Below, piece after piece: positions 2,007 to 24,911 of a DNA stretch of 39,841 nucleotides; the stretch's first letter is position 1; each line of letters starts with the position of its first letter. The translations under genes were made by a program, and so were the position numbers. The notes under the pieces are model-generated. The model did no database searches. It saw nothing but the letters and a program-made list of their open reading frames with translations, and was not told the DNA's origin. This DNA comes from a bacterium (GTDB taxonomy: Bacteria; SAR324; NAC60-12): contig CBDDTI010000155.1 of assembly GCA_965233585.1 (NCBI GenBank), positions 1-39,841 on the forward strand, written 5' to 3'.

Positions 2007-2073
2007 CTCTGGTTATGACTAACATAGCCATGGAAAATCCCTCATAAATGGAGGTCTTAATGGGAAAATCATC
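2007..2073. repeat. Partial copy of the same MITE-like repeat
   Basis: CTCTGGTTATGACTAACATAGCCATGGAAAATCCCTCATAAATGGAGG matches the right-hand copies. Confidence 0.75.
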
Positions 2074-6052: not shown

Positions 6053-6090
6053 TATAGAATAGATTATATAATAAGTATATATTATATCAT

Positions 6091-6690
6091 TTATTCTTCC
6101 TCTTGTTGCTTCAGCCAGTCTTGATGTTTTTTTGTCTTATTATGTCTTGATGTTGAGCAATTCTGAACTGGTTTTCCACACCCACATATAAAATACTGTT
6201 GTCGCATATCTTTTGTCTTTTCACAATACTGTTTTTTCCTCTCCTTTATTTTCTCTGGAATGGCAAGTCTATATTCTTTCTGCTTCAATAGCGCTTCTTC
6301 CTTGTTCTCATAGTAGTATTCCAGTTGCCTTTCATTTTTTCTTTCTCTTGTTTGTTCTTTGTATTCTTCTTTGGTTCGTCCTGCTATATGTTTATTTACA
6401 CAGTCATTGCTTTGGATGTAAAACCCTTCTCTTTTTGTCAATTCTTCTTTACTATTACAGGGGAAATTTTCTACTAATTCAATTTTACAATTTTCAAAAC
6501 CAAACTTGTCAAATATGTAATTTACACTTCTAAAAAACGGTTTGTCTTCATAATCCAAGTGAAAAAACTTATGTTTATGGTGTATCATTCTTTTTGTTAG
6601 TGGCTCAATAGTTGAACCATAGTAGCGCTCTTGGTATGCTACATCTGTAATCATATATATATTGCCCTTTTGATACTTATTATCACTCAT
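6091..6690 (-). CDS. GIY-YIG endonuclease with C-terminal zinc finger
   Basis: GNIYMI..YYGST..L.KR..H; ELVENFPC..EL..REG; C-terminal CGCG..RHNKTKKH. Confidence 0.85.
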   Translation of the reverse strand: MSDNKYQKGNIYMITDVAYQERYYGSTIEPLTKRMIHHKHKFFHLDYEDKPFFRSVNYIFDKFGFENCKIELVENFPCNSKEELTKREGFYIQSNDCVNKHIAGRTKEEYKEQTRERKNERQLEYYYENKEEALLKQKEYRLAIPEKIKERKKQYCEKTKDMRQQYFICGCGKPVQNCSTSRHNKTKKHQDWLKQQEEE

Positions 6691-6729
6691 TTGACCTCTT
6701 AATATCTTTTTTATAACATCATTTTGTTT

Positions 6730-9700
6730 TTAAATAGTTTTTATCTTATCACTAAATGCGCAATTACAAGAAACGCAATATCCAACTACATTATCCTTGA
6801 AGTGGCTTTGTTCATTATTAACCCTTTGACAGGTTATATTTGATGAAATTTTGCCATCTTCAAAATCTATCACCAATGGTTCATTACAATTTTCACACTG
6901 GGTATTCATAAGGTTCATCAAAAAATCTACATCCACATAATCCCCATCTTGTACATCTCTTCCTGCCTTTTTGTCTTGCTCAATGTAATTAAAAACCTTT
7001 CTCTCAAAATACTGCTCTACTATCCTTTTAGATTTACTTTCTTGACCTTCATTATATTTGAAAAACTTGATTTTGTTAAAGTCTGTCGCCCTTGTAAGGG
7101 CGGTGAAAAACCAATTCTTACTAACATACCATTCATTCCAATCATATATCACTATATCACCATCAACACTACAGCCCTGCTTTGAATGAGCGGTGTAGCA
7201 GTAAGCATATATAAAATGCTTTCTCAATAATTTCAGTTCTATATTTTGCTTCTCACCAGTTGCCACATTTTGTAAAACAACAATATCACCAACAATATTC
7301 ACAATCCTAAATCTGAAATTCACATTAAATTTCTTGCCTTTAGTCTTGATATATTTTCTACATATAACTTCCTCATTTATCACATATTCTTCACCTATAT
7401 TTTTCATTTCTCTGATTTTGCTGGAAACCATTTTACAGGTGTCGTTTGTATAAGCAATGTTATTATCATACATTTCTATCTTGTCAGTCCATTTGAAATA
7501 TGCATCAATGATTTCTCTAAAAGGTGTGCCTTCAAAAATCAACCTTTTAGCATCTCTTAACTTTTGCCTATCTTCTTCAGTCTTCAACCTCTTACATTCA
7601 TAAAGCATAATATTATTTTTGAAAATCAAATTAATACAATGGTCGGCGTATTTTTCGAAACTAATTACATTGCTTACTCTCTCTGGGTTTTTCAATTGCT
7701 TTGTATCACCAGTTGCTAATACAATCTTATCAGGATTATTTCTTTCAAAGTCCCATATCAAAGCCCACTTGCCGACATTATGAAAATATATCTCATCAAA
7801 CACTATGACATCATAAACTGAATACTCAAACTTTGTAAGCCTCTCATCTCCAAAAGAAATACTAAAAAACTTATTGATGGTCGCCCATTCACAACCGCAC
7901 TGTTGCCCTAACTCATTGCTATGAACAACGAATAAAACTCTGTAATTTCTATTTTTCAGATGCTTACATATATAACTCTTGCCTGAACCAGCGAACTCTG
8001 CTTGGATAAGCAACCTTTTATTATTCAAAATATGTTCATCTATGATTTCATCAGTGTTCCATTCATCCTTGACATCACCTGTCAAATTTTGATATTCAGT
8101 TATATTACATAACATACTGGGTTGTTTAGAAAAAGCCTTGCTGGGAAAATTGAATTTATCAGACCACCTCCATTCACCAATTTCACTACCAAATTTCAAC
8201 ACCTCCTTTGCCTTACCCAGATTACATTTATCAATCACAAAGGCATCAGTTTTTACTGAATACACCATTACATCATCCCTCATAAGTGTTTCATAAGCCT
8301 CATTCATATCAAAATTATGATGTTGTAAAATCAGTTCTTTCACATATTTATATCCGTTCCTCAAAGTTTTTGTATCGGAAATGTTCAGCACATAGTGCTT
8401 ACACTCATCCACTATTTTAGCACATTCTTTCTCATCACTTTCAGGTTCAATTGCATTGCCTTTATCATCAAATTCAAGCAAACAATCATCATCATCATTA
8501 TCATTCACTTCACCATCCCATTTAGTTTCAGTAATGATACTTATATCACCACCGTATTTTTCTTGATAGTAAAAGGCATCAACCATTTTTGAAAACACTA
8601 TGGACTTTTTAGCCTTGTTAGTTTGCTTTTCCAATAAGCCGATGTTGATACAAGCAATCATTTTTTTCTTCAACTTATCTTTCTCCTCATCCTCATCCAG
8701 TTTCAATTTCCAAAGTTCATCAACTATTTTTTTGTAATTAACTTTGTATGTATTAGATGGAACTTTGTAATAGATGATTTCAACCATATCAGCATATTTT
8801 TTCAAAAACTTACCGTAAATCAAGTTATAAGTCCTATTGAAAAATAGATTTCTCCTTTTGCGTTTAACAAGATATAATGTTAAAGCATTTATCTTGTTAA
8901 AATCATTCTTTGAATAATCATACTTCCTCCAAATATCAAATTCAGAAAAGACAGGCACTTCAAAAACATCCATTGTAGATTTAGTGTAGGCTTTCCTCCT
9001 ATCTAATTCAATGTGTGTATTCTTTCCTTCAATGATGCTTTCAAAATATCCACTGGGAGCTATGCTATGTGCCATTGAAAATATATTCAAGTCATCCTTA
9101 TGATAATATGACTTGTGATTAGGATTGAACATAGCCTTATTGAAATTAAAAAATGCTTCATTGACTACATTAAACATTTCAGCACTTTTACTATCAATAC
9201 AAGTATCAACAGCACAGTCTATCAAACTCTGGCTTCTGATGTTCAAAATTAATCCGTTAAATTTTACTTTGAGTGATGATACATTACCACCTGCTCCCAT
9301 TATGATTTTAGGCTCATACTTTGCCCTCTTAAACTCACAAAAAATTGTATTCAAGTTTTTGCCACTAACTAATTTCACTTCTTCTTCTTCACCCTCATTT
9401 TCTTTAACTATACCCATTATGTCATCAATGCCATTGAAAAAATCATACTTAACAGGCTTCTCTTTGCTATTTAAATGAAAGTCAGTAGAAGCATTTAGTT
9501 TCATATCTTCTTCAAAATCCCTTTGTGCTATGCTCTTGATGTTGTCATTCATTGTGTAAATGTGGTTACCCTTAATCAATTCAAACAAAACATTAACATT
9601 TTTGTTCTTGTCAGGGTCAAATGTATAAATCTTTTGACCGATACAGTTATACAACCTGACAGTTAATTTAAATTCTTCAAACACTGCTTCCATATCTTCA

Positions 9701-10779
9701 ACTGATGCCCCATTCTCCTTAAACTCTTCTTCATTTAAATTCATCAATTTCAAAATTTTATCTCTTGTCATTCTCTTGCGTTCCCATTTATTACTACTCA
9801 TCAATGTCTCTTCATAGTGGTCTATCAGTGAATTAATCCAACACTCACCGTCAGTGTGTTTCTTATTCTTGATGGCATCAACCAAATTATCACCGGCAAC
9901 ATCCATTTCAGTATTAATGGTGTAGTGATACATTCCTATCTCATGTCCATCCTTTAATTTTTTCTTTGTTTCATCCCCACTACCTCCTGTGTTTGATACA
10001 TCAGTAATGTCTAAAATCTTGATGGCAGTTGTGTAGTCTTCAAGGTTGGTATTATTCTTCAGGTCTGGGTGTTTTAAAACCAATCTCTTGAATAGTTTGT
10101 CAAACAAGGCTGTATCGTGTATCACTTCAAACTCTTTGTATCTACCTTTGGTGTCTCTTCTTTTGGGCAGTGTAGCATCTATTCCTGTCTCCCTTATCCA
10201 AGCCTCCCTAGTGTTCAGTTCATCAAATTGTTTTCTTGTAATTTTGTTTGGGTTGTCCTTCTTCAGTCTTAACCTATCTCTCAGTCGTTCCACCCATAAA
10301 TCAAACTTGTCTCTGACCGCATACTTATCCACCAGTGTTTCATTCAGTTTATCCTCATCTCTTACATTTTTCAAGTTCATCTGAATGGGCTGCTCCATAG
10401 AAAGTAGATTGTGCCAGTCTCCTTGGTTGTCTTTAAAGCCTCTCTGTCCTCCTGCTTTATGCCCATTATCAAAACCATACAACTGAAATCTTACAACATA
10501 GTCTTTCTTGTTTCTGTTAGTTGCCATTCTTTCATTCAATGGAGCTCTGCCTTCAATCTGTTCAAACTTTTTATCAAAACTTTTTTTAGCAAAAGTTGCT
10601 GTTCTCTTGTTGTCGCTCATCAGGCTGTTAATCAGTTTCTGTGCGGTTTCTCTTTGTGAAATCTTCCTGTCTCTATAAAATTCCACCACCTTATCTACTC
10701 TATATTTAACATCTTCTTTAGCACCTCTGGTTAATTTTTGTAGTATGCTTATATTATTGATTACACTTTTTGATTGCAT
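6730..10779 (-). CDS. 1349-aa replication protein: divergent family B DNA polymerase fused to an SF1 (RecD/Pif1-like) helicase and a C-terminal HNH-like zinc domain
   Basis: PolB-like motifs A (ELDRRKAY), B (KKMIACINIGLL) and C (SVKTDAF). Helicase motifs AGSGKS, VFDE, GDTKQL, TAHSKQG, FTALTRA. C-terminus CENC...QRVNN..SH..DNVV..CVSCN. Confidence 0.82.
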   Translation of the reverse strand: MQSKSVINNISILQKLTRGAKEDVKYRVDKVVEFYRDRKISQRETAQKLINSLMSDNKRTATFAKKSFDKKFEQIEGRAPLNERMATNRNKKDYVVRFQLYGFDNGHKAGGQRGFKDNQGDWHNLLSMEQPIQMNLKNVRDEDKLNETLVDKYAVRDKFDLWVERLRDRLRLKKDNPNKITRKQFDELNTREAWIRETGIDATLPKRRDTKGRYKEFEVIHDTALFDKLFKRLVLKHPDLKNNTNLEDYTTAIKILDITDVSNTGGSGDETKKKLKDGHEIGMYHYTINTEMDVAGDNLVDAIKNKKHTDGECWINSLIDHYEETLMSSNKWERKRMTRDKILKLMNLNEEEFKENGASVEDMEAVFEEFKLTVRLYNCIGQKIYTFDPDKNKNVNVLFELIKGNHIYTMNDNIKSIAQRDFEEDMKLNASTDFHLNSKEKPVKYDFFNGIDDIMGIVKENEGEEEEVKLVSGKNLNTIFCEFKRAKYEPKIIMGAGGNVSSLKVKFNGLILNIRSQSLIDCAVDTCIDSKSAEMFNVVNEAFFNFNKAMFNPNHKSYYHKDDLNIFSMAHSIAPSGYFESIIEGKNTHIELDRRKAYTKSTMDVFEVPVFSEFDIWRKYDYSKNDFNKINALTLYLVKRKRRNLFFNRTYNLIYGKFLKKYADMVEIIYYKVPSNTYKVNYKKIVDELWKLKLDEDEEKDKLKKKMIACINIGLLEKQTNKAKKSIVFSKMVDAFYYQEKYGGDISIITETKWDGEVNDNDDDDCLLEFDDKGNAIEPESDEKECAKIVDECKHYVLNISDTKTLRNGYKYVKELILQHHNFDMNEAYETLMRDDVMVYSVKTDAFVIDKCNLGKAKEVLKFGSEIGEWRWSDKFNFPSKAFSKQPSMLCNITEYQNLTGDVKDEWNTDEIIDEHILNNKRLLIQAEFAGSGKSYICKHLKNRNYRVLFVVHSNELGQQCGCEWATINKFFSISFGDERLTKFEYSVYDVIVFDEIYFHNVGKWALIWDFERNNPDKIVLATGDTKQLKNPERVSNVISFEKYADHCINLIFKNNIMLYECKRLKTEEDRQKLRDAKRLIFEGTPFREIIDAYFKWTDKIEMYDNNIAYTNDTCKMVSSKIREMKNIGEEYVINEEVICRKYIKTKGKKFNVNFRFRIVNIVGDIVVLQNVATGEKQNIELKLLRKHFIYAYCYTAHSKQGCSVDGDIVIYDWNEWYVSKNWFFTALTRATDFNKIKFFKYNEGQESKSKRIVEQYFERKVFNYIEQDKKAGRDVQDGDYVDVDFLMNLMNTQCENCNEPLVIDFEDGKISSNITCQRVNNEQSHFKDNVVGYCVSCNCAFSDKIKTI

Positions 10780-10852
10780 TATAATATATTTATATTATAT
10801 TATAATAACATCTCTTTAAGTAGTTTAAGACATTTTATGTTTTTTACCTTAT

Positions 10853-11125
10853 TTATTCTGATGTATCTTCAGTGTCTCCATTATTATAACTTGCTCTCAA
10901 TCTGATACACTTGCTTGATTGCTGGTGTCTCTTGAACTTTTCTTTTGTGATGCTACACCCGCATAAAGGACATTCAACTTTGACACTCAAAAACTTCTTG
11001 TAGTATTCCCAGTGGTAATATCTGTTGTATTTTTTCAAGTCCGCTTTTTTATCAATATCCACCTGTATTAGAGGCTCAATGATTACATATCCGTTTTCAT
11101 CAATGTCTCTGTTTTTGACACTCAT
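10853..11125 (-). CDS. Small zinc-finger protein
   Basis: CPLCG..KFKRHQQSSKC, similar to the fingers at the C-termini of the GIY-YIG proteins. Confidence 0.65.
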   Translation of the reverse strand: MSVKNRDIDENGYVIIEPLIQVDIDKKADLKKYNRYYHWEYYKKFLSVKVECPLCGCSITKEKFKRHQQSSKCIRLRASYNNGDTEDTSE

Positions 11126-11298
11126 AACTATGATTTATATAAGAATATATCTTTAAGTAAATTAAGACAAATTATTGTGCTTTGAAAATCATTTTATGAT
11201 TTAAAAAAACCAATAACCTACGGTTATTGGCTTTTATACATATCCTTCAACTTCTGCCATAGGTGTAGTTTATAAACCTCCCTCATTTGTTTCAACAT

Positions 11299-12396
11299 TT
11301 ACTTCTTCTTACTATCATTACCTTTTGAAGCAAACCAAGTTTTATAAGCACTATCAAACTGTTCATACTGTTCTTTTGTAATCATATCCTTATTTTTAGC
11401 ATTTACAAATTCTTCTCTTAACCTCTGAACCCCTATCGTGGATGCTCCTATCGGTTTTTGTATTGTCTTTCTCTTGCCACTATCTTTAGGTTCATCTATT
11501 TCATCATCTGCTTCCGCTCCTCCTATTTCTAACTCTGTCTTTTTCTTGTTTCTCTTTTTTCTCATTTTAGGCTCTTCTTCTGGACTGCTTCCATCTCTTT
11601 TTTCAGCATTTATTCTTTCAGTTCCTGCTTTAAAACTTTTGGGTCTTCCCGCTTTGCCTCTTGGTTCTATTGTTGTTTCAGGATTAGCACCTCTTTTGTT
11701 TGTTGATGATGTATCCATAACTTCTACAACGGGTAGTGCTTGAGAACTGCTTGAAGATGCTGATGGCTTGGCTTTAGGTTTTGCCTTGGCTTGTGGCATC
11801 TCTTCATCAGTTGCCATACTATACATTTCAGGTTTTATGGGAGCAAAACTTCTTGGTGGGTTGATGTGGTGTATCTGTTCAGGTATTGTTGGTTTGTTCT
11901 GTTTGAAGACTTCACCCCTGTGGTTAATTGCTGTTTCTTCTCTTCTTTTCATTGTTGTGTTTGCTCTGTGTGTCAGTTCAGCATTCAATTGAGATGCTTG
12001 ATGTGTGTTTGATGATGGCACTGTTGGGGTTGTTTGTGTTGTTAGTTCTTCATCTACATTCATTGGTTGAGTTGGTTGTGCTATTGTTGATGATGTTGTG
12101 GGTAGTCGTTGCATTCTTTCAGTGTGATATGTTCTTCCTGCTGTTCTTACATTTTGTCTTAATAGTAGTTCTGACATTTGCCTCAATAATAATCTGCCTT
12201 GTTCTTCTTTCAATTGTTCCATAGCATTTGACCCATCAAAATAAGAGCCTTCCTGACTGTTTCTAAACATTGTTGCTGACCTATCAGGTAGTTTGCCTGT
12301 GATTTTTTCATTGCTCTCATCAATAACCCCTATTATTTCTTCATAAGTAGGGCGTCGCTTCAATTCATAAATACTGTATTTATCCACTTTTGCCAT
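11299..12396 (-). CDS. Hypothetical 365-aa viral protein, largely low-complexity/basic
   Basis: Long clean ORF in AT-rich DNA with upstream TCTA motif; N-terminal LKRRPTYEEI, K/R-rich C-half with RGKAGRPK. Confidence 0.75.
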   Translation of the reverse strand: MAKVDKYSIYELKRRPTYEEIIGVIDESNEKITGKLPDRSATMFRNSQEGSYFDGSNAMEQLKEEQGRLLLRQMSELLLRQNVRTAGRTYHTERMQRLPTTSSTIAQPTQPMNVDEELTTQTTPTVPSSNTHQASQLNAELTHRANTTMKRREETAINHRGEVFKQNKPTIPEQIHHINPPRSFAPIKPEMYSMATDEEMPQAKAKPKAKPSASSSSSQALPVVEVMDTSSTNKRGANPETTIEPRGKAGRPKSFKAGTERINAEKRDGSSPEEEPKMRKKRNKKKTELEIGGAEADDEIDEPKDSGKRKTIQKPIGASTIGVQRLREEFVNAKNKDMITKEQYEQFDSAYKTWFASKGNDSKKK

Positions 12397-12432
12397 TATA
12401 ATATAAAATATTTTAGATTAAAATATTTTATA

Positions 12433-12756
12433 TCAAGTAAAACTTAAATTTCTAAATTGATTTATTTGATGCTGTAAATGTTCTAATGAATTGTGCGCGA
12501 GGTTGTCCCTTTGTATTTCATTATTAATTCTGTCTATTTGATTTCTGTAATTTACCCTTTTATTTGCTTCAATTATATCATTCCTAAAAGATAATAGTTT
12601 GTCCATAGTTTCTCTTCTATCCAGTTGGTCTTTTAACCATTTAAGATAAGCACTGTCATAGTGTTTAAATATACCATAGTTATTTCCATTTGCTGGTTTG
12701 CTCATTTGTTTTCTGTAGTTCAGTGTTGTCTGTTTCTTCCTGTGTGCTTGAAACAT
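12433..12756 (-). CDS. Hypothetical small helical protein (true start possibly MSKP at 12705)
   Basis: ORF fills the gap between neighbouring genes in the same orientation. Confidence 0.5.
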   Translation of the reverse strand: MFQAHRKKQTTLNYRKQMSKPANGNNYGIFKHYDSAYLKWLKDQLDRRETMDKLLSFRNDIIEANKRVNYRNQIDRINNEIQRDNLAHNSLEHLQHQINQFRNLSFT

Positions 12757-13504
12757 TTTCTATATTAATATTATTTAGATAATCTTGATGGAATGTTGAT
12801 TTTAAATGTCTTGACCTTTGACATCTTTGATAATCCTTTCCGCAATCACATTTGATTGCTTCTTTATTCCTTGTTTGTATCTTTTCTCTATTTTCCTCTC
12901 TGTATGTTTTTACTTTTTCTAAAAACCTTTCTCTATTCTCTTGATAGTATTGTTTCTTTTCTTCATTGATTTTGTCTGTGTTTTTCTGGTGGTATTCTCT
13001 TTTCTTTTTCAATATATCTTCTTTGTTCTTCTCTCTGTATTCTTGCCGTTTTTTCTTGTATTCTTCTGTGTCCTTGTTGTCTTGATGCCATTTTTTACAT
13101 CTTTCATTAAACTTTTCTTTATTTTGTAAGTGGTATTATTTCTTTACTTCTCTGATGTATTCTTTATTATCCTCTCGCCATTCCTTTATTGTTCTTAACG
13201 GTATTTCCGTGTTTAACACAGGTTTTCTTTCTAAAATATAATGTCTTTCTCGTTTTCTTAACTCTTCAATGTCATTACAAGGGTATTTCTCAATTTCTTC
13301 AATGTAAAAATGCTCTACACCCAATTCAAGTATTTTCACACACAATTTTCTGTTCTTCTTATATGTATTAAGACTGTCTTTATGTTGTTGAAATCTTTTT
13401 TGTAATGGTTGGCAACTACTGCCTATGTAGATTTCATCATCTATAAAATGTCCAATGAAGTAGATTTTACCATTCTGAAACTTTTTATCACCTAAACTCA
13501 CCAT
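12680..13504 (-). pseudogene. GIY-YIG endonuclease with C-terminal zinc finger, disrupted
   Basis: GKIYFI..IYIGSS in 13136-13504; premature TAA at 13136-13138, then a frameshift near 13050 leading into the basic repeats and CDCG..RHLKSTFH of ORF 12680-13012. Confidence 0.8.
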
Positions 13505-13574
13505 TAATTACTATAAATAACTTTTGTTTAAGTATATTTTTTATAGTATATAGTTAATTTAAGGATTTGCTCAC

Positions 13575-15116
13575 CTAATCGAAAACAATAGTCCCACTTT
13601 CTGTCAATTCTACCACGCTCTCACTCACAAGCGACACAAAAATTTCTTGTATTTGCTCTTCTGTTGCTAAACTTCCTTCTGTTCCTTTGATTTTAAATGT
13701 AATCAATGACCCAGACTTTGTGTTTTGACCAGTAAAATTAACATCAGGCATCTTCTCCAGTGAAAAAGCCATCACAAATTTGTTCTCTCTGTATTGTTTA
13801 TAACTGATGTTTAATGAGTTTTGGTCAGCATTCAGAAAATGAAGTGTTCGGCGTAAAAAGTAGAAGGCTTCAGATAAACTACTCACTTCGAACTCAGGGT
13901 ATTTCTTACTCGCTATTTGAAGTTGGTAAGTAAGTGCTCTACTGCTGTCAGCAAAGCCTTTACCTGCTTGTGCTGGTATGTTTTCTGGGTCTCCTCCGTC
14001 ATTAATCTGCCCCCATATCATAGGATTATAAAAATAGTTCCACCTCTTATATACATAATTATCCACTAAATAGTTTGAGTAGATTTCCCCACCTCTCGGT
14101 GTGCGGTATAAAGTAATAAAAGCATTTGTTAATTTAGACGCTGACTTAACAATATTCATATTAATTTCACCACCGCCTGTGTTAAAAGTTTGAGTGATAG
14201 TGTGGTATTGAGGAACAATTAATTTTAATGATTGACCTTCCAATAAATGTTTTGTAATGTTATTATCAACTGTATTATCCAATGTGATTACATCAGCGCG
14301 GATAATAACATTGTTAATTTCCCAACTGGTTGATGTATTACCGTCTTGAAAGTAGTAGCCGTTTTTGTCAGTTTGTGTTGTTCCATTACCTTGAGGGACT
14401 ACAACTGGTTCAGTGCCATCGCTTACAATGGTAAATTCTAATTCCAAAGGAGCAAAACGAAGTGGGAGGTAATATGAACTTTCCATTAACCCACATACCG
14501 GCTTGTGGGAGAGGCGGACTTTTGAATTAGCGCCGGGTATGCCTGATAATGAATGTCTTGTATGTCTAAAATCAACTCTACCATACTCGTTGTGGTCGCC
14601 GTTTGGATAATAATTTGTTCCATCACCAGTGTCGTTAATTTGAAGGAAATTATCTAATCCATTAGCATACTTATGGTAGTCATCATCATAGGAAGGATTA
14701 GCGCTACTTTCAATGTCATCCATTTCATTAACATCCTTTGACTTAAATGATTTAAATAACTCACAGTGGCGGTTATATTCAACAATATCCTGAACCATTT
14801 GACCACCTACAGTAGCCCTGTATCTTTGAAAGAATGAATGAAGACCACCTAAAGGTCGTAAAAACTTTGCCCTTGTGCCGTCAGTATTTTGTAAGTAAGC
14901 AAATAGACGGACACTACTTAAATCTAAATATTGGTTTGCCTCACCGCTGATGTAAAAGCGTATATTCTTATTACCAGCATTCGGGGCATATACATTAGAC
15001 CCTGATGGAAAATAATTCACTTGTCTTCTATCAGTGATGTATTGACTTGTTTGGGGTAATCCAAAGTTAAGTTGGTTAATCATAACATCGGAACTTTCGC
15101 TAATAATATTATCCAT
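13575..15116 (-). CDS. Major capsid protein (double jelly-roll, Polinton-like virus type)
   Basis: 513 aa, beta-rich; IRFYI...YLDLSSVRL...SFFQR....GGQMVQDI.EYN and YLPL...LELEFTI patterns typical of PLV MCPs; context with ATPase and penton. Confidence 0.8.
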   Translation of the reverse strand: MDNIISESSDVMINQLNFGLPQTSQYITDRRQVNYFPSGSNVYAPNAGNKNIRFYISGEANQYLDLSSVRLFAYLQNTDGTRAKFLRPLGGLHSFFQRYRATVGGQMVQDIVEYNRHCELFKSFKSKDVNEMDDIESSANPSYDDDYHKYANGLDNFLQINDTGDGTNYYPNGDHNEYGRVDFRHTRHSLSGIPGANSKVRLSHKPVCGLMESSYYLPLRFAPLELEFTIVSDGTEPVVVPQGNGTTQTDKNGYYFQDGNTSTSWEINNVIIRADVITLDNTVDNNITKHLLEGQSLKLIVPQYHTITQTFNTGGGEINMNIVKSASKLTNAFITLYRTPRGGEIYSNYLVDNYVYKRWNYFYNPMIWGQINDGGDPENIPAQAGKGFADSSRALTYQLQIASKKYPEFEVSSLSEAFYFLRRTLHFLNADQNSLNISYKQYRENKFVMAFSLEKMPDVNFTGQNTKSGSLITFKIKGTEGSLATEEQIQEIFVSLVSESVVELTESGTIVFD

Positions 15117-15202
15117 AACTTATATATTTAAATTTAGATATTTTATATTCTATATCATTTTTTCTTTTGATGAGGAAAATAAAAACTAATTTTCATTAAT
15201 TT

Positions 15203-15418
15203 TTATTTCTTCTTGTGTGCTATTAACTTAACATTTTTGGATTGAATATTATTGCTTATTTTTTCTATATTATTTCCATTATTTTCTACTAAACTTTTTA
15301 TAGCATTATAATCACTGGGTGGTTTATTCATCTCCTTCTCCAATTTATTATAGGTTGATTGTCCTTTTGTTAGAAGTATTGGTTTTTGTTGATGTTTACA
15401 ATCTATCTTATGAAACAT
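15203..15418 (-). CDS. Hypothetical small basic protein
   Basis: 71-aa ORF between lipase and MCP on the same strand. Confidence 0.4.
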   Translation of the reverse strand: MFHKIDCKHQQKPILLTKGQSTYNKLEKEMNKPPSDYNAIKSLVENNGNNIEKISNNIQSKNVKLIAHKKK

Positions 15419-15437
15419 TATTAATATAGTTTATATT

Positions 15438-16181: not shown

Positions 16182-16225
16182 TATATTATTATTGATAAAT
16201 TAAAATCTAAATTAAGAATATAATA

Positions 16226-17092: not shown

Positions 17093-17152
17093 CCATAAAA
17101 AACATAAATAAACATAAATATACATAAAGAAACACTACCTATATATGTTAGG

Positions 17153-17698
17153 ATGCCTGATTATAGCAAAGGTCAAATTTACAAAATAACTGATGTTGGA
17201 CAAACTAAATGTTATATAGGAAGCACTATTCAACAATTGTGTTATAGAATGGCAAGTCATAGGGCAAACTACAAAAACTATTTAGATGGTAAATATACTT
17301 TTGTTTCAGTATTCAGTCTATTTGAAGAGGTTGGAGTTGAAAATTGTAAAATGGTGTGGGTAAAAGATTTCCCCTGTAATAATAAAAAAGAACTTGAAGC
17401 AGAAGAAGGAAGAATACAAAAAGAAACTGATTGTGTAAATAAGAAAATTGCTGGTAGAACTCGGGCTCAATTATTTCAAGAGCACCCAGAAAAAAAAGCT
17501 ATGTTCGCAAAGAAATATCGTCAAAACAATCCAGAAAAAATCAGAGAAGACAGCAAAAAAAAAAGAGAAAAGAAAGGTAAGGTAAAACATCTATGTGTGT
17601 GTGGTTCTACTTATACATACTTTCATAAGACAAGACACGAAAAATCAAATAAGCATAAACAATACTTACAAAATCAAAGCAATCCCCAAGAGCAATAA
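17153..17698 (+). CDS. GIY-YIG endonuclease with C-terminal zinc finger
   Basis: GQIYKITD..CYIGST..L.YRMASH; C-terminal CVCG..RHEKSNKH. Confidence 0.87.
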   Translation: MPDYSKGQIYKITDVGQTKCYIGSTIQQLCYRMASHRANYKNYLDGKYTFVSVFSLFEEVGVENCKMVWVKDFPCNNKKELEAEEGRIQKETDCVNKKIAGRTRAQLFQEHPEKKAMFAKKYRQNNPEKIREDSKKKREKKGKVKHLCVCGSTYTYFHKTRHEKSNKHKQYLQNQSNPQEQ

Positions 17699-17780
17699 TA
17701 AAAACTAAACCAACATTCTATATATTTTTCTTCAAACTAAATATATAGAATTTTGGAAGAAAAAAATAGAACATTATATA

Positions 17781-18369
17781 ATGAGTATCAAAGTAGTAGA
17801 TTTACAAAATGAAGCAGTAAAAGAAGAAGCGCCAACACTTGAACCAATTGAAGAAGCAAAAGAAGAAGAACAACCTGAACTGGTTAATGAAGTAGATGAA
17901 GAACCAATTGAACAACCAAAAGAAGAAGTAAAAGAACAACTGAAAGAAGAAGTAAAAGAAGAAACAAAACCAAAAAGACAAACACAGAAGGATAGAATAC
18001 AGTGTCCTAAATGTCTCAAAGAAGTCTCATTGAAGACATACAGGTATTCACACGAAAAAAACTGCGGTGGCCAACTATCAGAAAAACCAGTCAGTCAAAC
18101 CACACGCAAAACCCAAAGCAAAACAAACAGCAAAACCAAAACCTAAACCACCTCCTGAAATATATTACAGCGATGAAGAAGAAGAAGAAGAACAACCAAC
18201 CCAACCTTTAATAAAGAAAAAGCAACCAGTTCCAGTTCAACCCATCAACCCAGTTGATGCTATGGCTCAACACTATTTGGTATTACAACAACAATTCATA
18301 AAACAAAAGCAAGAAAAATACAACAATTTATGTATGAATATGTTTTCTTCAAAAACTAAAAAAAGATAA
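17781..18369 (+). pseudogene. Acidic/Pro-rich protein with zinc finger, frameshifted
   Basis: E-rich N-terminus and CPKC..SHEKNC. A 4-bp duplication (CCAGTCAGTCAAA, ~18087-18099) splits EKPV|KPHAKPK between ORFs 17781-18146 and 18067-18369. Confidence 0.65.
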
Positions 18370-18402
18370 ATATAAAATAATATCTCAATTATTTTATATT
18401 TA

Positions 18403-21089
18403 ATGGTTCAATTGGACGGTGGCAATACTATCATAGGAACAGAATTTATCAAACTTTTAGCAACGGGTTCATCAACTTTAGCAACAGAGCAGTATGTAAA
18501 TACAGCAGTTGCTAATGGTGGAGTTGGTGGAGGAACAGGCACGACTGATTTAACAAATTACTATAATAAAGCTGAGACAGATGCTTTATTAAATAATAAA
18601 TATAATAAAACTGAGGCTGACACATTGTTAGATACAAAACTGAATGTAAATAATCCTCAAAATATGGAAGGAACATTGAATATAGGAAGTGTAGGTGGAA
18701 CATCAAAGATTATTATAAATGCTGTTTCATCTTCAAAAGATTTTTATGTTAATGGCGATGCACAAGTATTAGGTAATCATTTAGTAGCATCTTTGGACAG
18801 TAGCGGTTATATCAAAGGTTCAAATATTCAGTCAAATACATTCGATGCCCTCAATACAAATGATATACTTTTTCAAAGCAACAACGATACTTACATACAA
18901 TATGATGTTTCTGAAACTAAAATCGTAGCAAGTAAATTAATACAATGCGGTGGCAATCTTAAAACCCAAGAGATAGACACCATAGCACCGTTAGATTTAA
19001 TCATAAAAAGAAACAATGTCAGTATGATTGAACTTCAAGATAATCTGACGGTATTGAATACTAAAACTCAATGCGAAAATTTTATTGTATGTGATAATTT
19101 TGAAAGCAAAAATTCATCAACAATCATAAACCATATTATGAATGAAAGCACAGGAGAAATGAAATTCTATGTAGGCAGTCCGATAGTCCCCGATACAACA
19201 ACCAATTTAATTATGACATTGAAAAACGGGATTGTTGAATTTAACAAACCTACCAATTTAGATTTATCAGGGGATACATCAAACTGCTTAAAACTGACAG
19301 GAGAAACCGACCAACAAGTAGCAGGAACTGTTGCTGTTAATGGTGCCAAAAACGGAAGTAATATATTAACTGTTAATGGGGCTTCATACTTTTCAAATAA
19401 CATAGAATGTGTTAATAACATATTATGTGATTATATTGAAAGTAAGAACGCATCAACAATAATGAATTATGTAATGAATGAGAGCACTGGAGAAATTAAA
19501 TTTTATGTTGGAAGCCCCACAGTGCCGGATGCTACAACTAATTTAGTTATGACTTTACAGAATAATCTAATTACATTTCATAAACCCACAAGTCCAGATA
19601 TTGGAGGTGGAGGGGTAGATGATACTAATTTAGTAAAATATACCGGTCAGGCAGTTCAGACAATAGAAGGCGATTTGGTCATAGGTGGTGGTTCTCAATT
19701 TTCTACTTATGACTTAACGGTTAATGGTGTTTCTTATTTTAATGCAACCATAGAATTTCCATTAGGAGGTGCGATTAATTTAGGAACTGGTAAAGGTTAT
19801 ATTCGTTCTATCAATATAGGAAGTGGCACTGCCGCGTATGATTATTGTATTTTTGGTTCTGCTGGATTACATCGGTTTTATGTTGGAGGAAGTCCATTTC
19901 CTCAACACTTAAAGTATCAATTATCATCACTCAGGCGTATTTTAATGTTGATGTCGTGTGTCATACTGAATTACAAACTGATGTCATCAATACAAAAAAT
20001 GCTACTGATGTTGATTTAGTCTTTAAAAGAGGTGATGTTGAATATATGAAGTTTGAAGGAACACTACAAGCAGTGGAACTAACAAAAGGTGCTAAATCAA
20101 ACACTTATGATAGTATCGGTAATGCTGATGTCAGTTTTAGAAGGAACACCATAGATTTTATGTATCTTAGAAATGGTAATGTAGAGGTGAATACAGGTAT
20201 ATCATTAGTTGCTGAGACTGCTAAGTTTGATGTAATTGATAGTGCCACTCCTACCAATGTAGTATTTAAAAGAGGCGGTGTTAATTTCTTTACATTAGAC
20301 GGCACTAAAAATATTATTGATGTATCAACTGGTCGGGCGTTGTCGTCTCAATATATTTATGGAGACTATTTTATCCATAGAAATGTTGGTGCTGATATGG
20401 TTTTTCAAGGCAGTAATACAACAGATGACGGTTCAGTAGAATATATGAGATACAGAAAAGCAGATGAAGATGTTATTTTTTCAAAAGATATATATGTCAA
20501 TCAAGACAAAAGGGCATATTTTCACAAAGAAACTGGTAAGAATAGTTATATATTTAATGAAAATACAGCAGGTGTTAATCATTTCAAGTTAATCAATGAA
20601 GACCCTAACGGGGACATAAGATTGTATGCTAATGGTGGTATAAGACTTGTTGTTACTCCATCAAAAGTTTCTGTTCCAGCACCTTATACATTAGAAGGCG
20701 ATGTGGTTGATACTTCCGATTTTACTAAAAAATACGACATCAAAAGTATTGAACATAACTTTACTGACATTGTTAAACAAATTGAACCTAAAACTTTCAA
20801 AATGGAAGATGAAAAAGAAATTGGAATAACTAAAAACCATCTTGGATTTATTGCCGATGAGATTATGGAAGCAATACCGCCCGAATGGGAGAATATTGTT
20901 AGGGTTGATGATGAAGGTATTAAGAAGTTAAGTTATATAAAATTGTCAGGTATATTATGGGGAGTATGTAGAGAGCAACAAACAAAGATAGAACATTTAG
21001 AAACTCGTTTGTTTGAAGTTGAAAATTTCATTAAAGATTTTGTAAAACCTAAACCTAAAACAAGGACAAGAACAAAAACAACAGAATAG
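18403..21089 (+). pseudogene. Fibre/spike-like protein with C-terminal peptidase S74-type intramolecular chaperone; one frameshift near 19900-19930
   Basis: YNKxExDxLL repeats, G/N/T-rich beta repeats, internal duplication; C-terminal SD...K.DI...K.IEPKTF...GFIADE...LSY..L...L......Q coiled coil. Confidence 0.78.
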
Positions 21090-21117
21090 ATACATAATAT
21101 TAAACAAATTAATATTA

Positions 21118-21723
21118 TCAATCTTGTTCCAAACTTTTTATGTAGTTCTGGTGTTTCAGTGTTTTCAAATGTCTTGTATTATGTGTATATGTATATGTTG
21201 CTCCGCAATCACATATATGACTTGCTTTTCTTCTAGCATCAACAACTTCTTGGTTTTTCTCGTTGTATTCCTTCTGTATTTGTAAGTAATGCGCTTTGTT
21301 ATTGTAATAGTTCTCACTGCTTTTTTTGTTGTATTTTTCTTTGTTCTTTTGGTGATGCTGTGCCTTGTATGTTTTTAAATGTTCTTTATTTGCTTCTATC
21401 CATTCTGGTTTCTTTCTACCTGCTACAAGTTTATTTACACAGTCAGTGTTTTGAATGTAATATCCCTCTCTTCTATGTAGTTCATCTTTGGTTTCGCAAG
21501 GGTAATTTTCTATCAATTCAATTTTACAGTTTTCAAGTCCAAATTCTTCAAACAAAACGCCGCTGCTTACTAACTTATTCAAACCTTTACTAAAACTCTT
21601 ATAGGCACTCCTGTGTCCTGACATTCTATTACTTAATGTTTCAATGGTGCTTCCAATATAGCATTTGGTATAACCAATATCTACTATCTTATAAATTTTG
21701 CCTCTTTGATACTTGTTCTCCAT
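21118..21723 (-). CDS. GIY-YIG endonuclease with C-terminal zinc finger
   Basis: GKIYKIVD..CYIGST..LSNRMSGH; C-terminal CDCG..RHLKTLKH. Confidence 0.87.
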   Translation of the reverse strand: MENKYQRGKIYKIVDIGYTKCYIGSTIETLSNRMSGHRSAYKSFSKGLNKLVSSGVLFEEFGLENCKIELIENYPCETKDELHRREGYYIQNTDCVNKLVAGRKKPEWIEANKEHLKTYKAQHHQKNKEKYNKKSSENYYNNKAHYLQIQKEYNEKNQEVVDARRKASHICDCGATYTYTHNTRHLKTLKHQNYIKSLEQD

Positions 21724-21784
21724 ATCAGGATATATCAGTTTATATCAGTATTTCTTTAAACATATATTTTCTAAAATAATATAT

Positions 21785-21997
21785 ATGGGGAATAAGCAGT
21801 CGTCAGTTGAAAAGACCTCTATTGAAGAAATCAAATATATTAATGTTGATGACCTAGATTTATCAAAAATAGATGCCTTACAATTGAAAGCAATTAAGCA
21901 AATGGCAGGGAGAATAGAAACGCTGGAAAAAGAAAAGCAAACAAAAATGATATATGCTTTGCCAAAAATAGATGTCTGTAATTACAGCCTCTTCTAA
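21785..21997 (+). CDS. Small protein with candidate N-myristoylation signal (MGNKQS)
   Basis: ATG at 21785 preceded by TCTA (21770-21773) in AT-rich DNA; MGxxxS N-terminus; 70 aa. Confidence 0.55.
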   Translation: MGNKQSSVEKTSIEEIKYINVDDLDLSKIDALQLKAIKQMAGRIETLEKEKQTKMIYALPKIDVCNYSLF

Positions 21998-22026
21998 TTT
22001 AATAATATTATTGAATAATAATATTA

Positions 22027-22793
22027 TTAATTAATATGAATTTCTTTCTCCAGTCTCACCATAAACATTTTATTAATATCACTGTCCCTTAACTTTACAA
22101 ATAAGAATGAGTAGGGTTGAGCATCAACTGCTGTTCTGTAAATTTCCAGCATTGTCTTTTTGTCTATCAGCGCTGACTGTTCTTGAATAAATGTGTCCAG
22201 TTCTGCTTGGTTTTTCAACTTGAAAATATATAAACTGCTTGTATTTAATCTAACTATAGGAGCCAGTGCGTTCAGTTTCTGTGAAGAAGTTATGACTGAT
22301 AATCCGAAGACGAGTGTCTTGATTTTGTGTAAAGTCCGTGAAGAATTTTTGAATATCTCATAAAAACTCTATCTTCTGCCCAGTCGTCAATTATAAGAAG
22401 GCAACTATATAACTTGTTCATTTTATTTTTCTTCTGGTATTCTATCACTTTGTGCTGTGTGTCTATGATGTGTGCCAGACTTTCAGGGTCATACTCATCA
22501 AACAAATATTGCTCTTTTTTGTTGTCTATTTTTAGTTCTTTCTCTATATATCGGATTACTTCTTTGTATGCTTCATCTATGTGGGCTGTCGGTGATACAA
22601 TGTATATTCTCTCAAAGCATCCCCTGTAGATTTTTAGAATGAGGTTCTGAATTAATATACCCTTTCCGCCCTGTGATGCCGATACAATGATGCTTCTGAA
22701 TGGTAGTTTGTCTGCTTGTGGGTATGGTGATTGTTTGAATTCATACTGTTTTACATTGATAGGCTCTATTTTAGGAACATCAAGTTTTGACAT
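22027..22793 (-). pseudogene. A32/FtsK-HerA-type genome packaging ATPase, frameshifted
   Basis: Walker A-like SASQGGKG, IYIVSPT, Walker B LLIIDD, SRH. After a ~5-bp insertion near 22310 the frame continues FGLSVITSSQKL..LAPIVRLN into ORF 22027-22218. Confidence 0.85.
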
Positions 22794-23169
22794 AATATAA
22801 ATTATTTAGAAAATAAAATATATTATATCTTGTAAATGGCATATCTTATTTTACCTTTGAGTATTGGGGTCAGGTAGAATATGGAACAGTTGCCGATATT
22901 ACCCATCATAAGAATGTTAATTAAAAATAAAAAATCCACCCCTTGGGCTCTTGCTTCTTTTTCATTCCCGACACGGTCTCTTTTTGCTATGACAACAAGC
23001 AGTAGAAGATTTGAAGCCTTTTTGCTCTTGAATTTGTTTGATGCTATGTTTCAATCAGCACAGTTCATTTTCTTTGACATTTACCTACCGCCCCTTATGG
23101 ATTTTTGTTTGCGCCTAAAAATCCATATATAATTAGATAGTAGTAAAATATATCATCTAATTATATAGG

Positions 23170-23361
23170 ATGAGCAGTTGTGAAGTTTTTGATAGTTATA
23201 TCAATACAATAGATGTGATTGAAGATAGTGTCATTGATGATACTAAATTTCCAATTGTAAAAGATAATAAACTTAAACAGATATTCAGGGTAATGCTGGA
23301 GTTCCTGAAGGCAATTATAAATTATCTTAAGTATTATATAAATGCCACCAAAGAAAAGTAG
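23170..23361 (+). CDS. Hypothetical small protein
   Basis: 63-aa ORF preceded by TCTA (23156-23159). Confidence 0.4.
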   Translation: MSSCEVFDSYINTIDVIEDSVIDDTKFPIVKDNKLKQIFRVMLEFLKAIINYLKYYINATKEK

Positions 23362-23779
23362 TAAAAGCAAAATACCAAAAAAGCCAATACCTGAAGATTT
23401 TGAACTATCAGATGAAGAACCCACCACAATAAATCTGGATGAGGAGCAAAAACTAACAAGTAAATTTATCACCTTTGATTGCCCACTGTGTCATTGTAAA
23501 TTACAATTGAGAAATGAAATTGAAATCAACCCCAAGGGAATAAAATGTAAGTGTAATCCGTGTTCATTCAAAATCAGTAAAAATGACAAAACAATGAATG
23601 TCAGCAGGGATGACAACGGGGACATCACATTGGACAGTGAAATCCACAGTATCTCATTCAGTTTCAATAGAATTACAACCCCGCCCAATGATGATGAAGC
23701 AAACAGAAACCAAATGATAAGTGATGTAATGGCTACGCCCAGAAGTAAAAAACAACTGTCCATAAATGATATGGATTGA
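23342..23779 (+). CDS. Hypothetical Cys-cluster protein
   Basis: MPPKK basic start; CPLCHC and CKCNPC motifs. Confidence 0.6.
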   Translation: MPPKKSSKSKIPKKPIPEDFELSDEEPTTINLDEEQKLTSKFITFDCPLCHCKLQLRNEIEINPKGIKCKCNPCSFKISKNDKTMNVSRDDNGDITLDSEIHSISFSFNRITTPPNDDEANRNQMISDVMATPRSKKQLSINDMD

Positions 23780-23854
23780 AACATATTTAAAGAGTTATTT
23801 TAACACACTTTGAACTGCTAAATAAATAAATATCTAAATAATTAATATATAGTA

Positions 23855-24208
23855 ATGAGTGATTTGGATGATAAACAACCTGAAATGGCAGAGATGCTGA
23901 ACAAAATGACAAGATACAACAAGAATGTCAAAACATTGATGGACTTAATGAACAAGGCATTAGAAAAACTTGATATATTAGTAAAAAATAAACCTGCTGA
24001 AAATAATGGTGCTGATGCTGAGAAAGAAAGGATGGATAAAATCTTTGAGGCTAAAAAAATCGGCAGACCTGTAGGAACTTTTGAAACCAAGCAACACCAG
24101 TATCTGAAAATGCTGAACGAAGGCAAAATCAAAATGCCGAAGGCATCCACTTTGGAATTTTACAAGATTGAAAGGGATGGGGAAGTCTTCAAAGTGATGG
24201 GTGAATAG
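23855..24208 (+). CDS. Hypothetical protein (coiled coil plus KKIGRP)
   Basis: Clean ORF with upstream TCTA (23833-23836). Confidence 0.65.
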   Translation: MSDLDDKQPEMAEMLNKMTRYNKNVKTLMDLMNKALEKLDILVKNKPAENNGADAEKERMDKIFEAKKIGRPVGTFETKQHQYLKMLNEGKIKMPKASTLEFYKIERDGEVFKVMGE

Positions 24209-24245
24209 ATGAAATTTTGATAATATTATTATCTATAATAATATT

Positions 24246-24872
24246 ATGAAATTGTTAGAATTGTTTAGTGGCACTGGTAGTGTTGGAAGTGTAGCTAAAA
24301 ATATGGGCTGGACTGTTGTGTCATTAGATTTGAAAGGGGCTGATATAAACTGCGATATACTGCAATGGAAATACAAAAAATATCCTGTGAAATACTTTGA
24401 TATGATTTGGGTTTCACCCCCTTGTATTGAGTATAGCATCGCAAAACAAACTGGGGTAAGGAAGATTGAAGAAGCAAATGAAATAGTAATGAAAACTCTT
24501 GAGACAATCAAATACTTCAAGCCCAGAATTTGGTTCATTGAAAATCCACAAACGGGGTTATTGAAGAAGCAATCATTTATGGAGGGTTTGCCATACTTTG
24601 ATATTGACTATTGTAAATATGGGATGCAATACAGAAAAAGAACAAGGTTATGGACTAATCTGGATACTTGGACACTTAGACCTCTTTGTAAAAAGGATTG
24701 TGATAGTATGGATGGGAACAGGCATAAAGAAACAGCACAAAGGGCACCCAGTAATAAAAAGGAAACTTGGCCTGAAAACTATACCTTGTTCAAACAAAAG
24801 GATTTGTATAGAATACCTCAAGCATTGGTTGAAGAAATTATGACTGCTGTAAATGTTGTATGTTTTCAGTAA
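24246..24872 (+). CDS. Compact C5 cytosine DNA methyltransferase (viral)
   Basis: Motif I LELFSGTG, motif IV SPPC, motif VI IENP, motif VIII-like YRKRT. Confidence 0.9.
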   Translation: MKLLELFSGTGSVGSVAKNMGWTVVSLDLKGADINCDILQWKYKKYPVKYFDMIWVSPPCIEYSIAKQTGVRKIEEANEIVMKTLETIKYFKPRIWFIENPQTGLLKKQSFMEGLPYFDIDYCKYGMQYRKRTRLWTNLDTWTLRPLCKKDCDSMDGNRHKETAQRAPSNKKETWPENYTLFKQKDLYRIPQALVEEIMTAVNVVCFQ

Positions 24873-24911
24873 GATTGGGTCGTAAAGGGTTCCTACACTT
24901 GGGCTCATTGA

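Follow-up and report, generated by a model that had tools for sequence, protein, structure and literature searches.

The window analysed here, the whole of contig CBDDTI010000155.1 (39,841 nt; assembly GCA_965233585.1), carries an integrated polinton-like virus (PLV) whose genes are preceded by two classes of short motifs. The first is a TCTA box in AT-rich DNA, coupled to a TATA element at a fixed distance and placed before structural-type genes; the second, longer motif is linked to TATATA and stands before the replication protein and the GIY-YIG genes. Both keep to the coding strand and to a narrow range of positions, they divide the genes by class, and they are conserved in related copies of the element. 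The motif pair is very probably a genuine promoter code. A preliminary description, made from the letters of the window alone, had noticed TCTA upstream of several genes, likened it to the late promoter of Cafeteria roenbergensis virus (CroV) and its virophage mavirus, and derived from it a virophage-like lifestyle. The observation is real and stronger than that description could see, the reading as promoters is well supported, and the lifestyle is a reasonable and plausible inference.

TCTA Precedes Structural-Type Genes in the Window

Sense TCTA lies within -30 to -1 of the ATG in 10 of 22 open reading frames (ORFs) (45%; for minus-strand genes it reads TAGA on the plus strand), and antisense TAGA in 3 of the 22. 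All nine TCTA sites listed in the preliminary description are present (Table 1), as is the TCTC that it placed at the equivalent position of the fibre gene, and a tenth site, unlisted there, was found upstream of orf107. The distance to the ATG, given as 8-22 nt, holds roughly: counted from the T of TCTA to the A of the ATG, it is actually 6 to 23 nt, a slightly wider range. It was also fair to say that TCTA marks most structural genes, but the integrase and the methyltransferase carry it too.

The enrichment over AT-matched DNA on which the preliminary description had staked its claim was found. TCTA occurs in 13.7% of AT-matched 30-nt windows elsewhere in the element, upstream of 57 of 795 non-start ATGs (7.2%), and upstream of 9 of the 69 with at least 80% AT upstream (13%); compared with this background of 7-14%, the 10 of 22 ORFs give a binomial P of 2e-4 to 3e-4. 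Mononucleotide shuffles of the upstream regions had a mean of 2.7 and a maximum of 9 sites, and 0 of 5000 reached 10. The composite TCTA-N7-9-TATA was found 16 times in the window, compared with 4.5 ± 1.9 in whole-window dinucleotide shuffles (0/100 reach 16). Eight of its matches lie in 5068-24900, six of them directly upstream of ORF starts.

TCTA Is Conserved in Strand, Position, and Spacing

A metagenome scan yielded 60 loci with orthologues of the major capsid protein (MCP; 59-98% identity), 43 of which include the start of the gene and 17 of which lack it. TCTA lies at -18 to -29, mostly at -22 or -23, in 41 of these 43 orthologues (65-98% identical). Across the 41 upstream regions the A at -4 (A-N3-TCTA) is invariant, and the 31 flanking columns are just 54% alike.

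We then pooled 397 non-identical upstream regions from 40 sources, leaving out contig C581 as a near-duplicate of C322, and found TCTA in 127 of them; the pooled ORFs were called by a simple greedy procedure, with spurious ones among them, which has to be held against the promoter reading. Counts of sense TCTA per position are 4-20 at -23 to -13 and 0-4 at -60 to -24, and those of antisense TAGA are 0-8 without a peak. Measured from the T of TCTA, the start of a TATA falls at +12 or +13 in 68 of 131 sites, with a flat random-anchor control, and the columns flanking TCTA are 84-98% A+T from -11 to +15.

Counted per gene family over alignments that start at the N-terminus, TCTA precedes most orthologues of orf365 (15/17), orf107 (13/17), MCP (21/24), the putative penton (15/18), and the MGNKQS ORF (3/4). 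It is found less regularly before orf121 (7/13), the fibre (4/7), the integrase (4/7), the ATPase (3/5, including the distant copy in contig C657), and orf71 (5/19). The GIY-YIG genes (0/21), the replication protein (1/4), and orf90 (0/2) have it rarely or not at all.

The same assembly holds a close copy (contig C424, MCP 95% identical) and a second lineage with an MCP 30% identical (C657, C322, C581), in which both motif classes recur. IMG/VR searches with the MCP alone and with close MCPs gave no relative, and a narrower MCP alignment (A3) gave four distant contigs, with TCTA upstream of 6 of 58 ORFs, the background level. The code is therefore lineage- or host-specific, as has been reported for types of mavirus-like endogenous elements (EMALEs) (PMC8547959). 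We conclude that TCTA is a real signal, specific in strand and position, which stands in AT-rich context before structural-type genes and is conserved across diverged copies.

A Second Motif Marks the Replication and GIY-YIG Genes

The second, early-class motif has the consensus AAAAnTAYTTAAAGAAATA-N5-7-TATATA, with the TATA 15-20 nt downstream. De novo k-mer counts over the 397 regions gave TAAAGAAA 27 times in sense and once in antisense orientation and CTTAAAGA 17 times in sense and never in antisense orientation; TTAAAG peaks at -39 to -27. The motif precedes 6/8, 3/5, 2/3, and 1/5 orthologues in the GIY-YIG families and is also found upstream of ORFs in the terminal repeats. It precedes 1 of 24 MCP and 2 of 18 penton orthologues and none of orf365 or orf107.

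The two motifs thereby split the genes by class and almost never occur in the same gene family. TCTA was found in 93 of 136 cases in morphogenesis and other families, as opposed to 1 of 27 in the replication and GIY-YIG families (Fisher 1e-10), and the early motif in 5 of 136 and 18 of 27, respectively (Fisher 3e-13), on rows that are not phylogenetically independent and with orf247, orf347, and orf145 outside both groups.

A third candidate, TTAAGA, which occurs before orf121 orthologues, showed no enrichment (19 sense vs. 25 antisense) and was dropped. One of the four distant IMG/VR contigs (L188, MCP about 43% identical to the A3 query), a free PLV that lacks TCTA, has an early-like CTAAAGA...TATATA upstream of 4 of 16 ORFs, and the signal of early type may therefore be more ancient or more widespread than TCTA.

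Table 1. Motifs, genes, repeats, and hairpins of the element in the window
Feature	Position	Strand	Remarks
Late-class site, integrase	6055-6063	-	Two TCTA, 6060-6063 and 6055-6058, at -11 and -6
Late-class promoter (TCTA-N8-TATA), orf365	12402-12417	-	TCTA 12414-12417; in loop of 16-bp AT-rich palindrome 12399-12435
Late-class TCTA, orf107	12776-12779	-	
Late-class promoter (TCTA-N8-TATA), MCP	15123-15138	-	TCTA 15135-15138
Late-class promoter, penton-type gene	16206-16222	+	TCTA 16206-16209
TCTC variant, fibre	18383-18386	+	In loop of 15-bp palindrome 18366-18403
Late-class promoter, MGNKQS ORF	21770-21785	+	TCTA 21770-21773
Late-class promoter, ATPase	22796-22810	-	TCTA 22807-22810
Late-class TCTA, orf63	23156-23159	+	
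Late-class promoter, orf117	23833-23849	+	TCTA 23833-23836
Late-class TCTA, C5 methyltransferase	24232-24235	+	In loop of 16-bp palindrome 24216-24251
Early-class promoter (ACTTAAAGAG-N-TATA), replication protein	10796-10819	-	Early motif in 4/4 orthologues
Early-class promoter, orf90	11136-11156	-	Early motif in 2/2 orthologues
Early-class variant (ATAAAGA...TATATA), GIY-YIG gene 17153-17698	17124-17130	+	Early motif in 6/8 orthologues
Early-class promoter, GIY-YIG gene 21118-21723	21741-21759	-	
Whole integrated PLV, bounded by inverted repeats, nested retroelement included	2511-34443	.	
Left inverted repeat (candidate terminal inverted repeat)	2511-3417	.	120-aa zinc-finger ORF 2883-3245 (-), early-class motif upstream at 3253-3276
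Integrase, rve-type, 306 aa	5132-6052	-	Pfam rve E 1.1e-6, 29.3 bits, under the 32.6-bit cut-off
Replication protein, 1349 aa	6730-10779	-	SF1 helicase at residues 929-1056; Pfam Viral_helicase1 E 4e-7
orf90, zinc-finger ORF	10853-11125	-	
orf365	11299-12396	-	
orf107	12433-12756	-	
MCP, 513 aa, double jelly-roll (predicted)	13575-15116	-	AlphaFold model pLDDT 80, pTM 0.82
Penton-type gene (putative; label of the preliminary description)	16226-17092	+	
GIY-YIG gene	17153-17698	+	
Fibre gene, Peptidase_S74 chaperone domain	18403-21089	+	Pfam Peptidase_S74 E 1.8e-10
GIY-YIG gene	21118-21723	-	
MGNKQS ORF	21785-21997	+	
A32-type packaging ATPase	22030-22793	-	Pfam Pox_A32 E 3.6e-5
orf63	23170-23361	+	
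orf117	23855-24208	+	
C5 DNA methyltransferase	24246-24872	+	
Copia-type retroelement, nested between methyltransferase and right repeat	25315-32756	+	rve and RVT_2 domains; GC about 55%
Right inverted repeat (candidate terminal inverted repeat)	33499-34443	.	Mirror ORF 33672-34076 (+), early-class motif upstream at 33641-33664
AT-rich hairpin at convergent 3' ends of fibre and GIY-YIG genes	21093-21119	.	z -2.8 to -3.9 for the hairpin group
Similar AT-rich hairpins	15177-15208; 21997-22032		
Palindromes with 10-16-bp stems directly after stop codons	15177-15208; 21093-21119; 21997-22032; 12399-12435; 24216-24251; 18366-18403		

A Proposed Two-Class Promoter System and Its Reader

In the mechanism that we propose, the late-class core promoter would consist of A-N3-TCTA, 8-9 AT-rich nt, and TATA(TA), ending about 5-10 nt before the ATG, with TCTA as its upstream half. 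It would drive the morphogenesis set, namely MCP, the penton-type gene, the fibre, the packaging ATPase, and several small conserved ORFs, and also the integrase and the methyltransferase. The early class would drive the genes for the replication protein and the GIY-YIG paralogues as well as the zinc-finger ORFs, those of the terminal repeats among them. In each class, its own box would be coupled to a common TATA-like initiator region, with transcripts starting a few nucleotides from the ATG, and the two core promoters would act in a temporal cascade, early before late. Poxvirus-like cytoplasmic DNA viruses have bipartite promoters in which an upstream core that differs between gene classes is followed, after a spacer roughly one helical turn long, by an AT-rich initiator region just before the ORF; their layout is similar to that of the element, and the sequences are different.

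The most likely reader of such promoters would be the cytoplasmic transcription apparatus of a co-infecting giant virus, which would make the element virophage-like and inducible. We give a helper giant virus as reader an even chance, and the same balance applies to the explanation as a whole, i.e., bipartite late and early promoter classes in a Dino-group PLV that a giant virus reads. Since neither promoter element is more than about 25 nt away from the ATG, a canonical TATA box would presumably put the transcription start inside the ORF, and dinoflagellates reportedly use TTTT instead of TATA, plus spliced-leader trans-splicing (PMC9651163). Together these two points make host RNA polymerase II alone an awkward reader. 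A helper giant virus is favoured by the virophages and PLVs that borrow giant-virus promoters (mavirus, EMALE04, PgVV, and Tetraselmis PLVs). Only EMALEs with the CroV late motif respond to CroV, so that a motif of this type predicts which of them are reactivated (PMC10945749), and Tetraselmis PLVs are reportedly induced by a giant virus (bioRxiv 2025.10.09.676808). Matching the promoters of small viruses to those of giant viruses is accepted practice (PMC11502894).

Several points weigh against a giant virus as the reader. The likeness to the CroV/mavirus late promoter put forward in the preliminary description holds for the coding-strand TCTA, the AT-rich flanks, and the short distance to the ATG, but the core is 4 nt long and gains information just from the A at -4 and from its spacing to TATA, which makes convergence easy. 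The mimivirid early motif AAAATTGA is essentially absent (2/397 upstream regions), and therefore a CroV-like helper would not explain the early class; this class is also unlike that of ChlorV and CroV, the only giant viruses reported with TCTA. An IMG/VR scan for the early 14-mer TACTTAAAGAAATA (at least 118 stretches) gave no helper candidate among the matches listed, of which there was one per contig, except for four in one tandem repeat (L111). The capsid (PF04451) of nucleocytoplasmic large DNA viruses and VLTF3 (PF04947) had no match in the assembly, a negative that says little because the assembly is a bacterial bin, and the capsid control matched in no genome; A32 matches in the assembly were only other PLV copies. 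Two genes of the window copy, ATPase and fibre, are broken, and some PLVs replicate without a giant virus (PMC10945749).

RNA libraries add further points on the same side. Coral metatranscriptome libraries of three studies contain sequence of the element; in six runs labelled as RNA, 29-57% of the sampled words were found, and the contigs of four cover all 30 bins. These contigs give no transcript starts, ends, or strand, and some of them bridge intergenic regions (e.g., 15565-16273 and 20975-21988), so that DNA carry-over is possible. A common added leader was not seen among the 24 loose RNA-contig ends listed (641 further ends were unlisted), compared by eye without a reference. We conclude that the RNA data decide neither host-driven nor helper-driven expression.

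In the main rival explanation, the element would be an autonomous, nucleus-based PLV. Both motif classes would then be real promoters, read by host RNA polymerase II together with factors that the element encodes, the zinc-finger ORFs for example. The host would drive the early genes, an early product would activate the late ones, and a giant virus would be unnecessary. We take this seriously but hold it to be somewhat improbable. Giant-virus-free PLVs exist (PMC10945749; the TsV group, PMC11502894), and the element encodes, downstream of early motifs, a replication protein of its own as well as several zinc-finger ORFs. An autonomous PLV would also fit with an early motif unlike known mimivirid ones, with the lack of a helper in the assembly and the IMG/VR motif scan, and with the element sequence in the three coral metatranscriptome studies, although RNA contigs cannot demonstrate transcription. 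A host polymerase would have to contend with promoter elements that are presumably too near the ATG for a canonical TATA box and with the reported TTTT and spliced-leader system of dinoflagellates. Further, the compact, AT-rich, monocistronic layout with its 3' hairpins resembles giant-virus transcription units such as those of mimiviruses.

Two other explanations would deny TCTA the role of a promoter. We consider it very unlikely that TCTA belongs to a hairpin of 3' ends or terminators, or to some other structural signal of the DNA in short intergenic spacers. TCTA or TCTC does lie in the loops of 15-16-bp palindromes in the tightly packed tandem pairs orf107-orf365, orf117-methyltransferase, and orf121-fibre; 10 of 16 orthologues retain the palindrome upstream of orf365 (stem at least 10), with arms that differ in sequence, and 12 of 15 long AT-rich palindromes are intergenic, compared with 11% of the element. 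However, stems around TCTA average 4.5 bp for MCP (24 sites) and 3.8 bp for the penton (16 sites), no better than the 4.1 bp of shuffled flanks. TCTA also occurs at divergent promoters without an upstream 3' end (penton/orf247 and MGNKQS/GIY-YIG), and its position follows the coding strand and the ATG downstream of it. A better explanation of the palindromes is that the 3' hairpin of the upstream gene overlaps the next promoter, and we read the hairpins as 3'-end signals and not as what TCTA means. As for chance arising from AT-rich intergenic composition, the element has about 175 TCTA on both strands in roughly 20 kb, and dinucleotide-preserving shuffles of the 30-nt regions have a mean of 8.6 sites, with 1530 of 5000 reaching 10, a result that does not reject chance and counts against the promoter reading. 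We judged this control to be uninformative because C is so rare that the retained TC and CT nearly recreate TCTA. Chance is opposed by the strand asymmetry and sharp positional peak, the fixed TATA spacing, the excess of the composite motif over whole-window shuffles, the 45% of ORFs over a background of 7-14%, and the motif kept in 41 of 43 MCP orthologues. The comparative evidence from other copies and metagenome loci makes chance untenable; we judge it refuted and assign it next to no probability.

Returning to a giant virus as the reader, we suggest only tentatively, as a rather doubtful extension, that Dino-group PLVs could be a resident inducible system of coral symbionts against giant viruses, which would copy both the early and the late promoters of a helper giant virus of Symbiodiniaceae. 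Replication genes would then fire with the early genes of the helper and capsid genes with its late genes. The window copy itself is unlikely to be the working inducible provirophage that the preliminary description had suggested, since its ATPase and fibre genes are frameshifted and a retroelement is nested in it.

Relation to Known Systems

The family to which the element belongs has already been described, and the idea of promoter sharing is known. The presence of TCTA in the present PLV lineage seems to be new, as do its coupling to TATA at a fixed distance and a second motif, early in type, with a clean split between gene classes. A literature search found no published promoter analysis of dinoflagellate PLVs in main texts, and the word "promoter" occurs 0 times in the main texts of the Oxyrrhis and Karenia papers.

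Mavirus and the type-4 EMALEs are like the element in their TCTA core in AT-rich flanks near start codons, as small integrating DNA viruses, and in their rve-type integrase (PMC8547959); mavirus and EMALE04 carry the late TCTA of CroV (PMC8547959; PMC10945749). The element differs from them as a PLV with a Dino-group MCP in which a protease was not detected, with a dinoflagellate as its host, and with a second, non-mimivirid promoter class on its replication genes. Its TCTA is also coupled to TATA at a fixed +12/+13. ChlorV and CroV (Aliimimivirinae) pair TCTA with the early motif AAAAATTGA (PMC13196603), whereas the element pairs it with TAYTTAAAGAAATA.

Some genes of PgVV (Gezel-14T), a PLV virophage of Phaeocystis globosa, have the promoter of the helper: five of them carry AAAATTGA, the early motif of mimivirids, and a late motif was not found there (bioRxiv 2022.07.28.501842). 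In the element, by contrast, AAAATTGA is confined to the 2 of 397 regions mentioned above, two other motifs split the genes by class, and the integrase is of rve type, where PgVV has a tyrosine recombinase. Bellas et al. (2023, PMC10120064) describe Dino-group MCPs as distant PgVV relatives. The Dino-group endogenous PLVs of that study are like the element in being integrated, low in GC, and placed amid retroelement-rich DNA with Symbiodiniaceae relatives; as far as its main text is concerned, the words "promoter" and "motif" occur 0 times each.

A two-class promoter code makes questions about the DNA viruses of coral algal symbionts, and about the role of their many endogenous PLVs, testable. 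If Dino-group PLVs do copy both promoters of a helper giant virus, the pair of TAYTTAAAGAAATA and TCTA-N8-TATA would be a searchable signature of that virus in reef metagenomes. Should the code match a giant virus, dinoflagellates would have in these elements their first candidates for a virophage-like defence, and it would be the first time that a small virus was seen to copy the promoters of its helper in both temporal classes. Should the host polymerase read it, the code would provide a defined promoter, a rarity in a lineage with hardly any known promoters.

Identity and State of the Element

The inverted repeats that bound the provirus are each about 0.9 kb long and 91.5% alike over 949 nt. 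An inverted-repeat search within 1-27000 gave no terminal inverted repeat, and the pair appeared in a search of the whole window. A target-site duplication was not established at the provirus ends. Because the repeats bound the provirus, the retroelement lies inside it; without this insertion the provirus is about 24.5 kb long, and homology with other copies spans about 3750/5100 to about 24750. The zinc-finger ORFs in the repeats (120-134 aa) resemble the C-terminal part of the GIY-YIG proteins.

The gene set comprises an rve-type integrase, a replication protein, four GIY-YIG paralogues, MCP, a penton-type ORF, a fibre, an A32 ATPase, a C5 methyltransferase, and about ten small ORFs. The identity of the MCP now rests on its predicted fold. 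A model from an alignment of 56 diverse relatives matched PBCV-1 Vp54 (E 1.6e-18), the Sputnik MCP (1.1e-14), and the mavirus MCP (8e-11) in Foldseek; an earlier fold from 11 close sequences had been poor (pLDDT 37). PDB sequence searches gave nothing useful, and a Pfam search over the 56 relatives gave no family. The N-terminal 900 aa of the replication protein may be similar to protein-primed DNA polymerase B (pPolB), so that the protein is possibly a pPolB-SF1 helicase fusion. This is a lead only, from Atlas clusters with PF03175 (score 0.90-0.91); Pfam detects the helicase alone, and a PDB sequence search gave no match. A helicase-pPolB fusion of about 1500 aa has been reported in a PLV of Oxyrrhis marina (PMC12721341).

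The MCP is 69-72% identical to six gene models of Fugacium kawagutii ("Skav"), which places the element in the Dino group of endogenous PLVs (group name from PMC10120064). The integrated state, the terminal inverted repeats, and the integrase are also features of that group. Features of the virophage type are the double jelly-roll MCP and the A32/FtsK-type packaging ATPase, frameshifted here; the double jelly-roll is common to PLVs and giant viruses, so that the MCP fold does not separate a virophage from these. A cysteine maturation protease was not found, as no protease family was detected in the 22 ORFs (Pfam E ≤0.01; distant forms could escape). On sequence grounds we take the element to be a Dino-group PLV and not a virophage proper or of mavirus type. 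Of the mavirus-like virophage in the preliminary description, the rve-type integrase stands, with a match below the cut-off.

The window copy looks decayed, although an assembly error could also account for the two broken frames. Comparison with intact orthologues by tblastn places a frameshift near 19857-19926 in the fibre gene, and comparison with 252-aa orthologues places one near 22314-22356 in the ATPase gene. The ORF orf63, with its TCTA upstream, overlaps the start of a longer zinc-ribbon ORF (23342-23779) that has no motif of its own. The same overlap of a short and a long ORF occurs in contig C657 (18640-18834 and 18809-19237), i.e., in two diverged lineages, and the two ORFs may be a bicistronic or frameshifted unit.

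Hairpins next to stop codons reach z ≤-2.8 against dinucleotide shuffles in 7 of 21 genes, and the other 14 do not. In mimiviruses, the "hairpin rule" is that an AT-rich palindrome just past the stop codon marks the 3' ends of mRNAs, and the hairpins of the window are possibly similar.

Contig and Host Context

The window is one contig of a 12-Mb, 747-contig assembly. By its sequence it is eukaryotic and Symbiodiniaceae-like, and it is probably Symbiodiniaceae-type DNA that was placed wrongly, by composition, in a SAR324 bacterial bin. The block with the provirus has a GC content of 30-36%; Copia-type retroelements, which carry rve and RVT_2 domains and have about 55% GC (53-56% for the insertion), lie on its flanks and also break into it. 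The named relatives of the nested retroelement are dinoflagellates without exception, mostly Symbiodiniaceae: Cladocopium goreaui (52% identity), Effrenium, Fugacium "Skav" models, Symbiodinium, and Durusdinium, with one Prorocentrum. Near-identical DNA occurs in runs under at least five organism labels and in coral metagenomes, which fits an algal symbiont in common. The nesting recalls a retrotransposon reported within a virophage in Cafeteria (PMC8547959). A second RVT_2 ORF lies outside the provirus (37513-39720).

At least five further contigs of the bin carry related proviruses (C424, C657, C322, C581, and C73). One of them, C424 (19.7 kb), is a mosaic that combines two or three incomplete copies of the provirus family in the window, with a fragmented replication gene and duplicated repeats of the integrase end; matches to the window run past both of its ends, as in circular or tandem DNA. 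A GC-rich 96-bp tandem repeat with 2.2 copies in the window (4346-4557) adjoins the integrase end and has many more copies in C424. Lastly, a 67-nt repeat occurs three times in the window (2007-2073, 34967-35033, and 35418-35483); this small dispersed element has matches in a further 4-8 contigs or loci.

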